Assembly (NCBI GenBank): GCA_964016885.1
Contig: OZ024746.1
Span: 32,798,001-32,862,000 of the forward strand
Direction: 5' to 3'
DNA from: Eledone cirrhosa
Taxonomy: Eukaryota
Length of the DNA: 64,000 nucleotides
The translations under genes were made by a program, and so were the position numbers. Below, one piece after another: positions 13,662-46,885 of this stretch. The notes under the pieces are model-generated. The model made no database searches. It was not told where the DNA came from and worked only from the letters and a program-made list of their open reading frames with translations. How positions within the stretch are numbered: the stretch's first letter is position 1; each line of letters begins with the position of its first letter.

Positions 13662-13793
13662 AAATCAGGATAGAACCAGTTTAAAACTAGTTAGACCGTT
13701 AAGTATTCGATACTTGGGTTGGTAGTGTATGGCTATATTAGAAAGAGTCGGTACCCGACGGCTGAGCTCTTGGCGTTTCAACAGCTAGTTGAA
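13662..13793 (-). mobile_element. Short PLE-derived element related to family A
   Basis: Shares GAAAC..GAGCTCAGCCGTCGGG and the 3' stem-loop; 5' end is a mini-hairpin TTCAAC-AGCTA-GTTGAA; (TA)n flanks. Confidence 0.6.
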
Positions 13794-13823
13794 TATATAT
13801 ATATATATATATATATATATATA

Positions 13824-16800
13824 TTATTATTATGTAATAAACAACATAAGGCAATTATTCCATTTACCAGGTTTTGCTTTCAATCCTCAGAATGAAAAAA
13901 TCCTGGTTTGTTTATTGAATTTGGATCTTAAAAAAACAAAAAAAGCAAGCTATATGAAAGTGAGGCTGGAGAAAGAAGAAGGAAAGGAAAAATAAAATAA
14001 GACTACACATACAACCACACATACACGAAAAAACATAAAAGCACACACACACACACACACACACACACACACACACACACACACACACACACACACACAC
14101 ACACACACACATACACGCACACGCATACACACACACGTTATTCCGGGTTGAATCGGAGGCAGCCACAGTAAGCAAGGCACTCAGTACACCGCAGAGCATG
14201 AAAGCTTTAATATAGATGAGAATCTGCATATGTATACACACACACACACACACACGCATGTGTATGCGCGCACGCACGCACGCGTATACAAATATAAATA
14301 TAAATATATTTCCCCCATACACATGTGTGTGCGTGCAAGTGTCTTGTGAATTAGATTATACTTAGAAAATGTCTACAGAATTCCCTAAACCTTCGTCAAT
14401 TTACTAGAACCTTTAAGAATTTAGCTTTTAAGGAATCTCCCCTTCCTCCAAATCTATCTACCATGACTGACCCCATACTGATCTTACAGACACCTGTAAG
14501 CTAAAGAGAAACCTAATGATAAGGATTGGCTCCAATCTGAATACAGAAATCTGTCTGCCTTTGTTCCTCTAAGAACAAACATATACAAACATTCATACAC
14601 ACACACACACACACACACACACACACACACACACACACACACACACACACACACCCACACACACACACACACACACACACACATATCTACACACACACAC
14701 GCATACATATATATATATACACACACACATACACACACACACACATGCATATATACACACACATATACACACACACACACACACACACACATATATACAC
14801 GCATATATATACATACATATATATATATATGCGCGTGCGTACACGCATACACATACGTACACATAGCTATACCCACATATATATATATATATATATATAT
14901 ATACATACATACATTCACACAATCAAACATATATACACACGTACATGCATACACATACATAAATGCACTCCTCTACATATTCACACACGCAAATAAATAT
15001 AGGGAAAAAAATATATATATATATATATATATTATAAAAGCATTGAGACCGTTGCATAAGGCAGCAAACTGGACAGACAAGCGTGGTAAGAAACACACAC
15101 AAAAGCACATATACATACGCACGAAATAGTCAACGCATTCACACACTCTCACACATAAAAAAATTTCAAATACAAATACAAAAACGCATACATACGCATA
15201 CATGCAAAACCACGCACAAGTGTACAATCTATACACACACACACGTGTATACAACTATATGCACACACACACATATATGCATACATATACACACACATAT
15301 ATATACATAAATACAAACGTACACACACACATATATATACACGTACACATACACACACATATACATACATAGCTAAACAATTATACACATACAAATACGA
15401 ATATATCATAAACACGCACAACAGAACACAAACACACACACACACACACACGTATACACACACACACACACACACATATACAATTATCAATATATACACA
15501 CGCACATATGTACACACACACATATACACACATACACATATATATATATATATATATATATATATCTATATATAACGAAGGAAATGTGGTAAGGAACCAG
15601 GTGGACCATAACGCACCAAAGTACTCAATACTTGAGGTAGTAGAGTGGGTAATAGGAACCAGTAAGACCCCGACAGCTGAGCTCAAGCCGTTTCGACGGC
15701 TAATTCTGGACTCTGTATTAGCCGTCGAAACGGCTTGAGCTCAGCTGTCGGGGTCTTACTGGTTCCTATTATATCTATATATATCTATATATATATATAT
15801 ATATATATATATATATATACACACATATGCATGCATATACACATATACACACACACACACACACGTATACACACACACACACACACACACACATATACAA
15901 TTATCAATATATACACACGCACATATGTACACACACACATATACACACACACACACACACACACATATATATATATATATATATATATATATATATATAT
16001 ATATATACACACATATGCATGCATATACACATATACACACATACACACAACCACGCACACACACATGCATACGCATACACACACGGTTGATTTCTCATAT
16101 GAGTGTCAATCCAGTTACAGATCAGGTGCGGTCTCAGATGAGGACAGCATCTGAAGATCTCAGTCTTTGAATTAAGGCAAGCGGAAGTGTCTCTCAAGTT
16201 TAGCAAAATCCTATACTTGTGTGTATATGTGTATATGCATGCATATGTGTGTATATATATATATATATATATATATATATATATATATATATATATATGT
16301 GTGTGTGTGTATATGTGTGTGTGTACATATGTGCGTGTGTATATATTGATAATTGTATATGTGTGTGTGTGTGTATATGTGTGTGTGTGTGTGTGTGTGT
16401 GTATATGTATGCATATATGTGTGTGTGTGCATATAGTTGTATACACGTGTGTGTGTGTATAGATTGTACACTTGTGCGTGGTTTTGCATGTATGCGTATG
16501 TATGCGTTTTTGTATTTGTATTTGAAATTTTTTTATGTGTGAGAGTGTGTGAATGCGTTGACTATTTCGTGCGTATGTATATGTGCTTTTGTGTGTGTTT
16601 CTTACCACGCTTGTCTGTCCAGTTTGCTGCCTTATGTAACGGTCTTAATGTTTTTATAATATATATATATATATATATATTTTTTTTTTCCTATATTTAT
16701 TTGCGTGTGTGAATATGTAGAGGAGTGCATTTATGTATGTGTATGCATGTACGTGTGTATATATGTTTGATTGTGTGAATGTATGTATGTATATATATAT

Positions 16801-17948
16801 ATATATATATATATATATATATATATATATATATATATGTGTGGGTATGGCTATGTGTACGTATGTGTATGCGTGTACGCACGCGCATATATATATATAT
16901 GTATGTATATATATGCGTGTATATATGTGTGTGTGTGTGTGTATATATATGTGTGTGTATATATGCATGTGTGTGTATGTGTGTGTGTGTATGTGTGTGT
17001 GTATATATATATATATGTATGCGTGTGTGTGTGTAGATATGTTTGTGTGTGTGTGTGTGTGTGTGTGTGTGTGTGTGTGTGTGTGTGTGTGTGTGTGTGT
17101 GTGTGTGTGTGTGTGTGTGTGTATGTATGAATGTTTGTATATGTTTGTTCTTAGAGGAACAAAGGCAGACAGATTTCTGTATTCAGATTGGAGCCAATCC
17201 TTATCATTAGGTTTCTCTTTAGCTTACAGGTGTCTGTAAGATCAGTATGGGGTCAGTCATGGTAGATAGATTTGGAGGAAGGGGAGATTCCTTAAAAGCT
17301 AAATTCTTAAAGGTTCTAGTAAATTGATGAAGGTTTAGGGAATTCTGTAGACATTTTCTAAGTATAATCTAATTCACAAGACACTTGCACGCACACACAT
17401 GTGTATGGGGGAAATATATTTATATTTATATTTGTATACGCGTGCGTGCGTGCGCGCATACACATGCGTGTGTGTGTGTGTGTGTGTGTGTGTGTGTGTG
17501 TGTGTGTGTGTGTGTGTGTGTGTGTGTGTGTGTGTATGTGTTTGTATACATATACAGATTCTCATCTATATTAAAACTTTCATGCTCTGCGGTGTACTGA
17601 GTGCCTTGCTTACTGTGGCTGCCTCCGATTCAACCCGGAATAACGTGTGTGTGTATGCGTGTGCGTGTATGTGTGTGTGTGTGTGTGTGTGTGTGTGTGT
17701 GTGTGCTTTTATGTTTTTTCGTGTATGTGTGGTTGTATGTGTAGTCTTATTTTATTTTTCCTTTCCTTCTTCCTTCTCCAGCCTCACTTTCATATAGCTT
17801 GCTTTTTTTGTTTTTTTAAGATCCAAATTCAATAAACAAACCAGGATTTTTTCATTCTGAGGATTGAAAGCAAAACCTTTTGCTTTTAAGAAACCACTGG
17901 TAAATGGAATAATTGCCTTATGTTGTTTATTACATAATAATAATAATT
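13824..17948. repeat. Large inverted duplication, arms ~1.7 kb (13824-~15560 and ~16216-17948)
   Basis: Unique blocks are near-identical reverse complements (e.g. 14330-14590 vs 17130-17395); mirrored ORFs 14484-14960(-) and 16733-17239(+). Confidence 0.95.
15574..15771 (-). mobile_element. Family A PLE-derived short element with fold-back hairpin
   Basis: Perfect 55-bp arms 15650-15704/15717-15771, 12-nt loop. Confidence 0.8.
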
Positions 17949-18099
17949 AAGCTCTGTTGCTTACATAGAGCGCTCTTTTTTCCTGGACTTTTCTGACGGA
18001 ATTACTTCATTTACACACACACACACACACACATATATATATATATATATATATATATATATATATATATATATATATAAAGGAGTAGCGTCCGAAACG

Positions 18100-18420
18100 T
18101 TAAGTAAGAAATTTTAATAGTATTTCTATTAAAAATGTTACTATATTTATATGTGTAGGGGGAAAATGCTTCGTAATAAGGGATAGAAAGATCTTAGCTA
18201 ATGGTGTGGCCACCTCCATATTATATGGTGGGTTATACCAACAAATGCGACGGGATCTATTTCTTCTTGGTCTATTTTCGTACTCTGTATATGCTACCTT
18301 ATCGACAAATCCACTCCGAGCAAGTGCTTCATTGTAATAAGTGGAATGGTCCTTGAAAATATGCTCGTTAGTAGATAGACGGGAAAGCCTCAACGAAACG
18401 TTTCTTACCAGATTCTTGGT
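18100..18420 (-). pseudogene. Penelope-like element RT-thumb/linker fragment, inverted relative to the rest of the element
   Basis: RLSRLSTNEHIF...YNEALARSGF...RRICWYNPPYNMEVATPLAKIFLSLITKHFPPTH. Confidence 0.8.
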
Positions 18421-45689: not shown

Positions 45690-45886
45690 ACATATATGTT
45701 TATATATTCAAAGTGGGTATCTTTGTATATATATAGGATTTTGCCTCTCTCTCTCTTTCTCTCTCTCTCTCTCCCTCTCTCCCTCTCTCTCTCTCATATA
45801 TATATATATATATATATATATAGAGAGAGAGAGGCAAAATCCTATATATACAAAGATACCCACTTTGAAATATAAACATATATGTA
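45690..45886. repeat. Short fold-back with ~70-bp arms around (CT)n/(TA)n
   Basis: TTCAAAGTGGGTATCTTTGTATATATATAGGATTTTGCCTCTCT vs AGAGAGGCAAAATCCTATATATACAAAGATACCCACTTTGAA. Confidence 0.85.
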
Positions 45887-46612
45887 TATATGTATTTATT
45901 TTATATATATATATATATATATATATATATATATATATATATATATATATATATATATATATATATGTTGTGAGTATCTAAGTATATATATATATATCTA
46001 TGTTGTGTGTATCTAAGTATATATGTATGTGTCCATGAATATGTGTGTAACGTAAGAAACTATTGTGTACAGACGAACTTATACAATCGCTATTATACTA
46101 TTATAAAACATATATACACTCACATGTTCTTTCTTCAACACACTCTGTCCGGTAACACAATTCCTCTAATCAATATTGCTAGTACACATACAGTTTCATA
46201 CGTATACTCTTATTCTTTCTTTGTGATCACAACACGTTTAACATTTTCCTATTCCAAAATGACTGCACGCATACACATAAACACGTAAACACTTATAAAC
46301 ATATACACTGCGGCATACATACACCCATACACACCGACACCCACAAACTTCTGTATATAGAACCTTACTCTTTTTGTGCACACACACACACACGCACACG
46401 CACACACACACACATATATATATATATATATGTATATATAAATAAATAAATAAATAAATATATAAATATATATATATAAGTAGAAGGGGTATATAATTTG
46501 TTGGAAGTCCGACAAATATAAATGTTTATAACTGATTTAGAGCACTCAGTGAATATCCAACCGATAAGGTATGATTTTCATGGGTATGTCTCTATTTATA
46601 AAACAAACTTTG

Positions 46613-46675
46613 TATTTTATCTGATGAAAGCGTACCAATGTGTCTTGGTACCCTTGAAATATATATAATAAAATA
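46613..46675 (+). ncRNA. Type I minimal hammerhead ribozyme
   Basis: TATTTTAT-CTGATGA-AAGCGTACCAA-TGTGTC-TTGGTACCCTT-GAAA-T-ATAT-A-TA-ATAAAATA; predicted cleavage after 46667. Confidence 0.85.
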
Positions 46676-46762
46676 AATATGGTTTTATAAATATAGTTCC
46701 CATTTATTTAATATCATTGTATATATATATATATATATATATATATATATATATATATATGT

Positions 46763-46885
46763 TTATCCTGGGTTCAATCGGGGGTAATCCCAGTAAGTAA
46801 GGTACTCAATACATAGCAGAGTATAAATATTTAATATAGAAATGGCTTCGACAGGAACTGTTTCATTGGAAAGAATTCATCAGGA
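46763..46885 (-). mobile_element. Family B element beginning at an HHR core
   Basis: Minus strand CTGATGA-ATT-CTTTCC-AAT-GAAAC at 46883-46860; GTATTGAGTAC 3' motif. Confidence 0.75.

Follow-up and report, generated by a model that had tools for sequence, protein, structure and literature searches.

Penelope-like elements (PLEs) of the Hydra clade, as set out in the accessible parts of Craig et al. (2021; PMC8557442), carry a C-terminal GIY-YIG endonuclease (EN) with a CxCX5C linker, along with RWK and DKT motifs, and combine hammerheads in their pseudo-long terminal repeats (pLTRs) with (TA)n targets and inverted, 5'-truncated copies bearing a tail at one end. All of these features recur in the elements studied here or in their relatives, the hammerhead as a predicted motif, and the insertion pattern is also described in the available portion of PMC4209133. 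Short non-coding hammerhead repeats derived from PLE pLTRs, as also found here, are known as animal non-LTR retrozymes (PMC7229834; bioRxiv 10.64898/2026.07.22.740005, in the sections covered). We analysed a 64,000-nucleotide stretch of the Eledone cirrhosa genome (GCA_964016885.1, contig OZ024746.1, positions 32,798,001 to 32,862,000; hereafter the window), in which an earlier note had described a stem-loop with an NGA loop near the 3' end of several short elements. We conclude that the motif is real, but that its conserved structure is a predicted bulged RNA hairpin instead of the NGA triloop.

All seven motif strings listed in the note were found at their positions (the site given as 22737 is 22736-22746, minus strand), and further copies lie at 15619-33(-), 23753-67(-), 38494(+), 41203(+) and 14177(-). 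The string GYAYNGARTRC occurred 14 times in the window as compared with 2.41 expected (100 shuffles, maximum 8). Eleven of the 14 occurrences fall inside the motif-bearing elements, which represent few families only: A (five copies), its relative A', B (four copies), C and D. A further family, E, had been overlooked in the note. A position weight matrix (PWM), trained each time without the family tested and set against a 128-kb background, scored A (5/5), the B copies B22 and B46, C and D above all background. A' (13701) and the B copies B17 and B14 were not above background, 20 and 6 background sites scoring equally high. The distance proposed for the motif, 30-55 nt before the element's end, held in A, A', B, C and E (41-50 nt to the 3' microsatellite) but not in D (83 nt). 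Similarly, the families are dissimilar, as had been claimed, for A versus B versus C, with anchored flank scores of 0-6.5 as against 34-62 within families and nothing alignable in common outside the motif, but the site at 13701 is a relative of that at 30286 (75.6% over 90 nt, E 2.5e-8).

The fold was assessed in 18 sites outside the window, chosen by hammerhead plus 3' string with structure playing no part in the choice. The conserved fold has a lower stem RCWC/GWGY, a 2-nt 3' bulge and a freely covarying upper stem, followed by RCY; it incorporates the upstream ACTCTRCT block, which the note had treated as mere context. The RCWC partner was present in 18/18 sites, and an anchored script found 120/126 cells paired. 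In the upper stem, 48/54 cells paired as compared with 29.6 after shuffling (maximum 42 in 10,000; p<1e-4), although such pairing shuffles ignore relatedness and most outside Hydra loci are related copies from one bin (G001). In the lower stem the compensatory types were A-U/G-C and U-A/A-U, and each upper-stem pair showed four to five. A pair counter gave 99.2% paired, with 52 double-change cells and 0/500 shuffles as high, on a model-fitted alignment that is biased towards the model. Anchored scripts and this alignment were used for the pair counts because MAFFT puts the 5' block out of register. Minimum free energy (MFE) folding retained the lower stem in 27/31 segments, and the G-U pairs of the hairpin fall on the sense strand. 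In the window 12/14 sites had 7/7 pairs, with A' at 5/7 and D at 1/7, and a covariance model (CM), for which E from the window and five sequences of other animals served as training set (six in all), recovered all five A copies, two of B, and C.

The covariation test of the triloop in this wider set was negative, contrary to the compensatory stem changes reported in the note. In the 18 sites 44/72 cells paired (p=0.67), and the shuffle comparison gave 26/54 as against 25.9. Across 28 sequences the pair counter gave 60.7% paired, with 54/500 shuffles as high. By itself the triloop had a free energy of just -2.1 to +0.2 kcal/mol in A, A' and B, and no such stem arises in D. A T>C change at 30300 disrupts its outer pair in family A in 51% (X1) and 88% (X5) of depth, with no compensating partner change among the 40 of 75 variants listed, and the loop GA, supposedly fixed, is GT in loci L112 and L114. 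Outside loci read GCTC...TT GAGC ACT at the motif, so that the triloop is broken (A.C) while the upstream pairing is kept through a double change. Given the absence of covariation and the broken pairs in relatives, we reject the NGA triloop as the conserved structure. A telomerase P6.1-like triloop, defined in the part of PMC2965242 available by a 4-bp stem, a U-G closing pair and a 3-nt loop with conserved U and G, is rejected with it, as is a pseudoknot of both folds, since this requires the triloop stem.

A type I hammerhead motif, unnoticed in the note, lies 24-61 nt upstream of the hairpin. As called by a core-plus-helix descriptor, the full core is present in B (46883-, 22827-) and E (17857+) and the 3' half in A and A'; C is doubtful, and the motif is absent in D and in F, a further candidate site (below). 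Alignment of Hydra proteins led to 20 loci, on contigs of animal origin wrongly binned into prokaryote assemblies, and 51 further regions were taken from three of those assemblies; the alignment gave no matches in viral contigs. The resulting survey comprised 82 hammerhead rows, which are copies and not families, with Hydra clade assigned by motifs and EN hidden Markov models (HMMs). The hairpin followed 13/27 Hydra-linked hammerheads with long helix III and 5/11 unlinked hammerheads of this type, but 0/21 Neptune-linked (nine with long tails) and 0/8 Poseidon-linked ones (eight with long tails). Among the 14 Hydra-linked rows without the hairpin, 11 end or are cut before its place. One extra match belongs to a neighbouring insertion, beyond a TA run, and one of the rows linked to Hydra was a chance match within an open reading frame (ORF). 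Under a looser motif rule, one of 11 Neptune-linked tails matches as well (0.12 expected).

In contigs from other animals the hairpin is thus found after ORFs of Hydra-clade PLEs and, under the stricter rule, not in Neptune- or Poseidon-linked tails. At locus L112, an open frame of 739 aa containing RWK, DKT, YRDD and CxCX5C lies between two hairpin-bearing repeats. RWK and DKT motifs and a reverse transcriptase (RT) core occur in the hairpin-bearing L111, L112, L114 and L118, and an EN of GIY-YIG type at the C-terminus, a CxCX5C linker and CxxC near the end in the motif-bearing L107, L110-L114, L118 and L119. By eye, in the accessible supplement of PMC8557442, the Hydra-2_Ajap consensus ends with the hairpin, Hydra-1_Ajap starts with two and Hydra-1_Crog has one with a mismatch; of four Hydra ends given there, two include the hairpin, in one case imperfectly, and the other two finish before reaching it. 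We conclude that the predicted hairpin is, from these comparisons, a conserved element of Hydra PLEs.

Pattern scans gave 36 viral matches and 70 metagenome matches; the viral and most of the metagenome matches were due to chance, and 36 of the 70 came from one gut-bacterial locus. Animal contigs were limited to L052 and L059/L097, with clear flank support for L059 only. The prokaryote bin G001 contains dozens of animal contigs (e.g. L119, L188-L227) dense in Hydra, Neptune and Poseidon PLEs, which are host contamination. The Naiad_Mmer consensus has one bulged-fold site in its 3' untranslated region (UTR), ~480 nt from the end (available supplement of PMC8557442). This site may be due to chance, and a Naiad origin of the motif was rejected, this match being the only, unexplained, one.

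Within the window, the link to PLEs is through family E and not through element D. A 4.2-kb inverted insertion (13825..18011) has a left arm that ends 8 nt short of the hairpin and a right arm that includes it. At its centre lies a Hydra-type EN C-terminus (16113..16239, minus strand; modest scores, with Hydra EN HMM E 0.014; tblastn E 4e-6 for a 210-nt stretch and E 0.2-0.48 window-wide), a C-terminal piece being all of the Hydra EN joined to family E in the window. Through the insertion ~2 kb rich in microsatellites was duplicated, and with it a nested B copy. Since only one arm has the A copy of 15575-15767, this copy arrived later. The note had instead tied the motif to PLEs through an EN C-terminus in D (40838). 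No Pfam match was found there; phmmer gave two unrelated repeat proteins only; a word search was empty; and tblastn with 53 EN-bearing ORFs or 358 proteins, and Hydra, Neptune and Poseidon HMMs, were all negative. The resemblance is by eye alone, and frameshifted decay could hide a remnant. D as a Neptune or Poseidon PLE with a recognizable GIY-YIG EN remnant was thus not confirmed in these searches. The link accordingly stands on the upstream hammerheads, the Hydra ORFs of relatives, the published Hydra consensus sequences and the 13825-18011 insertion.

Full 5' UTRs contain two hairpins ~60 nt apart, 40-43 nt from end to start (L111, L112, L118, L110 and L114, the first copy having decayed in L114), of which the second sits 15-40 nt before the ATG of the ORF. 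When ended copies were compared with continuing ones, genomic ends lay at -6 to -9 from a hairpin in 10/12 family comparisons: short ends ~8 nt before hairpin 1 and long ends ~8 nt before hairpin 2 (L110, L112 and the L188 family), in most cases at a TA. TA was present at -9..-7 in 18/23 hairpins as compared with 10.7 after shuffling. Two Neptune-linked tails (L186/L272 and L149/L184) have a different stem, TAC..GTA then TCC, 7-8 nt after short ends; it is possible that this is an analogous signal.

These observations suggest, with some confidence, that the hairpin is a cis RNA signal positioning the Hydra PLE RT to prime ~8 nt upstream, and that the tail is the interval between hairpins. The RT-EN protein of the element would bind the hairpin and start cDNA ~8 nt 5' of it. 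It would cut (TA)n on both strands, and both 3' ends would prime through 2-4 nt of TA microhomology at the UA before a bound hairpin. Priming at hairpin 1 would give a short end, and priming at hairpin 2 a long end retaining hairpin 1. The two cDNAs from the two sides of the break would then be united head to head; in family A this junction apparently falls in hammerhead helix II. An inverted insertion would result, short at one end and long at the other, its extra tail being the stretch between the start sites; hairpin-set start sites would in this way explain the one-sided tails of these elements. Such RNAs would have given rise to the window families as abortive or non-coding products, and families A, B and C would be expected to have master loci that carry a second hairpin. 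The note had suggested a cis RNA signal for PLE RT recognition; the idea gains support from evidence other than that put forward there, its structure does not, and recognition by the RT is what we infer.

Stem-loops that recruit a cognate RT and fix the place of priming are familiar from the 3' ends of LINEs and SINEs, the R2 3' UTR and hepatitis B virus (HBV) epsilon. No homology with these is implied; here priming would take place internally, on the hairpin's 5' side, and the hairpin is present twice. The mechanism fits PAc, a Poseidon-clade element of Anolis, because PAc too has two internal starts, extension of both strands and a tail equal to the interval: according to the accessible text of Frangieh et al. 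(2024; PMC11167929), the PAc protein cuts and extends each of the two strands, and initiates at two internal stem-loop sites downstream of the hammerhead. PAc belongs to another clade, and a single AC-rich stem loop within the ORF holds its starts, no conserved motif being defined in that text; by eye, the RNA of its Fig. S1 is without the motif string. A more tentative proposal, which we consider possible rather than probable, is that the paired identical hairpins act as a ruler, each loading one RT of a dimer ~8 nt upstream so that both (TA)n break ends are primed at once.

Several points weigh against hairpin-directed priming. The Hydra-locus counts come mostly from related copies in bin G001 and hence are not independent events. 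The hairpin is weak in A and B, with MFE preferring the triloop in two short window segments; local folds are no more stable than shuffles (z -2.0 to +0.1); and A' and D fit the bulged fold poorly. The offset has exceptions in the short arm of family B, at -13 in a TC repeat, and in L254, at -11. A second hairpin was not seen for the families of the window, three Hydra-linked hammerheads with long downstream sequence are without the motif, and no hammerhead or hairpin follows the larger Hydra fragment in the window (18080-19354) on its downstream side. Rfam hammerhead models gave no match in three short stretches tested, and the ribozyme is thus a predicted one.

A single hairpin might suffice if hairpin 1 anchored the ribonucleoprotein and set both starts (-8 and +33 to +50), blocked copying, or served as a DNA signal for the EN, hairpin 2 then being a redundant duplicate. 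The window families do show both ends with only hairpin 1 visible, and the D. virilis tail was reported to be needed for EN recognition (as cited in the available text of PMC11167929). Nevertheless, long ends lie 7-8 nt before hairpin 2 in three families, equal to the short-end offset at hairpin 1, and G-U pairs on the sense strand favour RNA over a DNA signal, making this explanation unlikely. We give still less credence to the idea that the hairpins aid translation or stability of the hammerhead-cleaved, uncapped RNA, the ends reflecting TA microhomology in an AT-rich UTR. It would suit the location of both hairpins in a TA-rich 5' UTR, the second close to the ATG, but nearby TA steps are unused as ends, and the offset is equal across unrelated families and at both hairpins.

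All four triloop pairs are possible in 11/14 window sites, and in A' the triloop is preserved but the bulged stem broken, as if the NGA triloop were a functional alternative fold in this lineage, forming a switch with the bulged stem. Triloop pairing, however, arises automatically where GAGT plus RCY adjoin an upper stem TRC/GYA; it is broken in E, F, D and L059, only 1/18 outside sites form it and A' is a single copy, so that such a switch is very improbable. Finally, all carriers may descend from one clade, and the hairpin could reflect shared ancestry without function. We regard this as scarcely credible, given that flanks have diverged beyond alignment, yet pairing has been kept through double changes. 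Positioning of the RT by the hairpin remains the explanation that we favour.

Each element of the window is embedded in (TA)n or (CA)n, some ends lying in (CA)n or (TG)n. In most, the inverted arm stops short and the sense arm continues through the motif, and A, B22, C, D and E are inverted 5'-truncated copies with a tail at one end. Families A, B and C have no coding part. Family A is typified by 30143..30344(+), with an inverted short arm, hammerhead 3' half (30225-30247), hairpin-bearing tail and TA flanks. Its hairpin (30273..30299, plus strand), with lower stem ACTC/GAGT, TT bulge, upper stem TACT/AGTA and 3' ACT, has 7/7 pairs, matches the CM and is conserved across copies. The other A copies are 15575..15767(-), with hairpin 15620-15646 and hammerhead 3' half 15672-15694; 23709..23848(-), internally deleted, with hairpin 23754-23780; 38389..38548(+), with hairpin 38479-38505; and 41052..41261(+), with hammerhead 3' half 41144-41166 and hairpin 41188-41214. 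A' (13663..13792, minus strand) has a hammerhead 3' half at 13757-13779 and a hairpin at 13702-13728 that, with two lower-stem mismatches, is probably decayed. Thousands of family A reads, among the matches listed, join (TA)n at 30267 or 30334-30344, and X5 depth across the family A arm is highest on the motif.

Family B comprises 22689..22901(-), with a hammerhead core from 22827, a cleavage triplet ending at 22784 and hairpin 22735-22756; 46762..46884(-), with a full core from 46883 and hairpin 46801-46822; 17557..17642(+), with hairpin 17584-17605; and the twin of the last, 14139-14224(-), with hairpin 14176-14197. Family C (41743..42121, plus strand) has 300-bp inverted arms, a possible hammerhead 3' half at 41983-41994 and hairpin 42052-42079. 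The end of family E (17857..18011, plus strand) has a full hammerhead motif at 17857-17902, hairpin 17951-17974 and its long end at 18011. Candidate site F (23514..23536, plus strand) lies in a short TA-flanked remnant without a hammerhead and has 7/7 pairs (ATTC/GAGT, TT bulge, CAA/TTG; CM E 1.4). Element D (39770..40927, plus strand) has inverted arms and a partial motif, with its 3' block at 40841-40849; it matches the PWM, with 1/7 pairs in local register, and no protein. Within 40767-40849 of D, GCTC begins ~7 nt after the short end and a GAGC block lies 70 nt further on; the two could base-pair about a three-way junction, or each be one half of a separate, decayed hairpin.

Other hammerhead remnants, with minimal helix III and without the Hydra hairpin, lie at 22246+, about 30806+, 21529+, 46621+ and 3914-; in the 22246 family, a stem with a TT bulge bears a faint resemblance to it. 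The 5'-inverted Hydra-clade fragment at 18080-19354 extends from RT thumb to EN (HMM E 7e-50), and part of a minimal hammerhead lies before it. In an Rfam scan of the window, the 150 of 250 matches listed were all miRNA-type noise with low scores, and the tail was also unmatched in the three short stretches. Long palindromic TA-flanked elements (4241-5571, 5611-5892, 38145-38293, 38579-39638 and 41418-41716) had no protein or hairpin match. LINE-type RT ORFs lie at 49475-56226, 58453-61911 and 31202-32580, one with an open frame of 1152 aa, and 51600-53429 is duplicated at 62171-64000 (1.8 kb, 99.9%).

Tails here are ~60-85 nt, as compared with the 30-40 nt given in PMC8557442, the accessible text of which mentions neither the tail hairpin, its duplication nor the fixed end offset, though its Hydra consensus sequences contain the hairpin. 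Retrozymes are defined as tandem units with one hammerhead each, whereas the window elements are single inverted insertions and the window has no tandem arrays of these units; the sections covered of the retrozyme papers (PMC7229834; bioRxiv 10.64898/2026.07.22.740005) do not name a cis signal. We found no description of the hairpin in the accessible literature on PLEs and retrozymes, most subscription papers, Repbase entries and figure images being beyond reach. The one in vitro PLE study found internal starts but, in the text available, no conserved signal (PMC11167929).

How PLEs choose their RNA and why their tails are one-ended are open questions, and the hairpin makes both testable by point mutants. 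If the paired hairpins did act as a ruler, PLE insertions in general would have an explanation for their inverted structure and one-sided tail, two Neptune-linked tails having another stem at this 7-8 nt offset, and a ~25-nt portable tag would be at hand for loading cargo RNA on a telomerase-related RT. The 4.2-kb insertion indicates that Hydra machinery duplicated ~2 kb of repeat-laden sequence in inverted form. The hairpin is also a marker that assigns abundant unclassified palindromic repeats to Hydra PLEs: the 140-nt arm of family A matches 17,796 contigs in one run (X1), 483 in X4, 346 in X5, from another organism, and 24,033 reads in X6.

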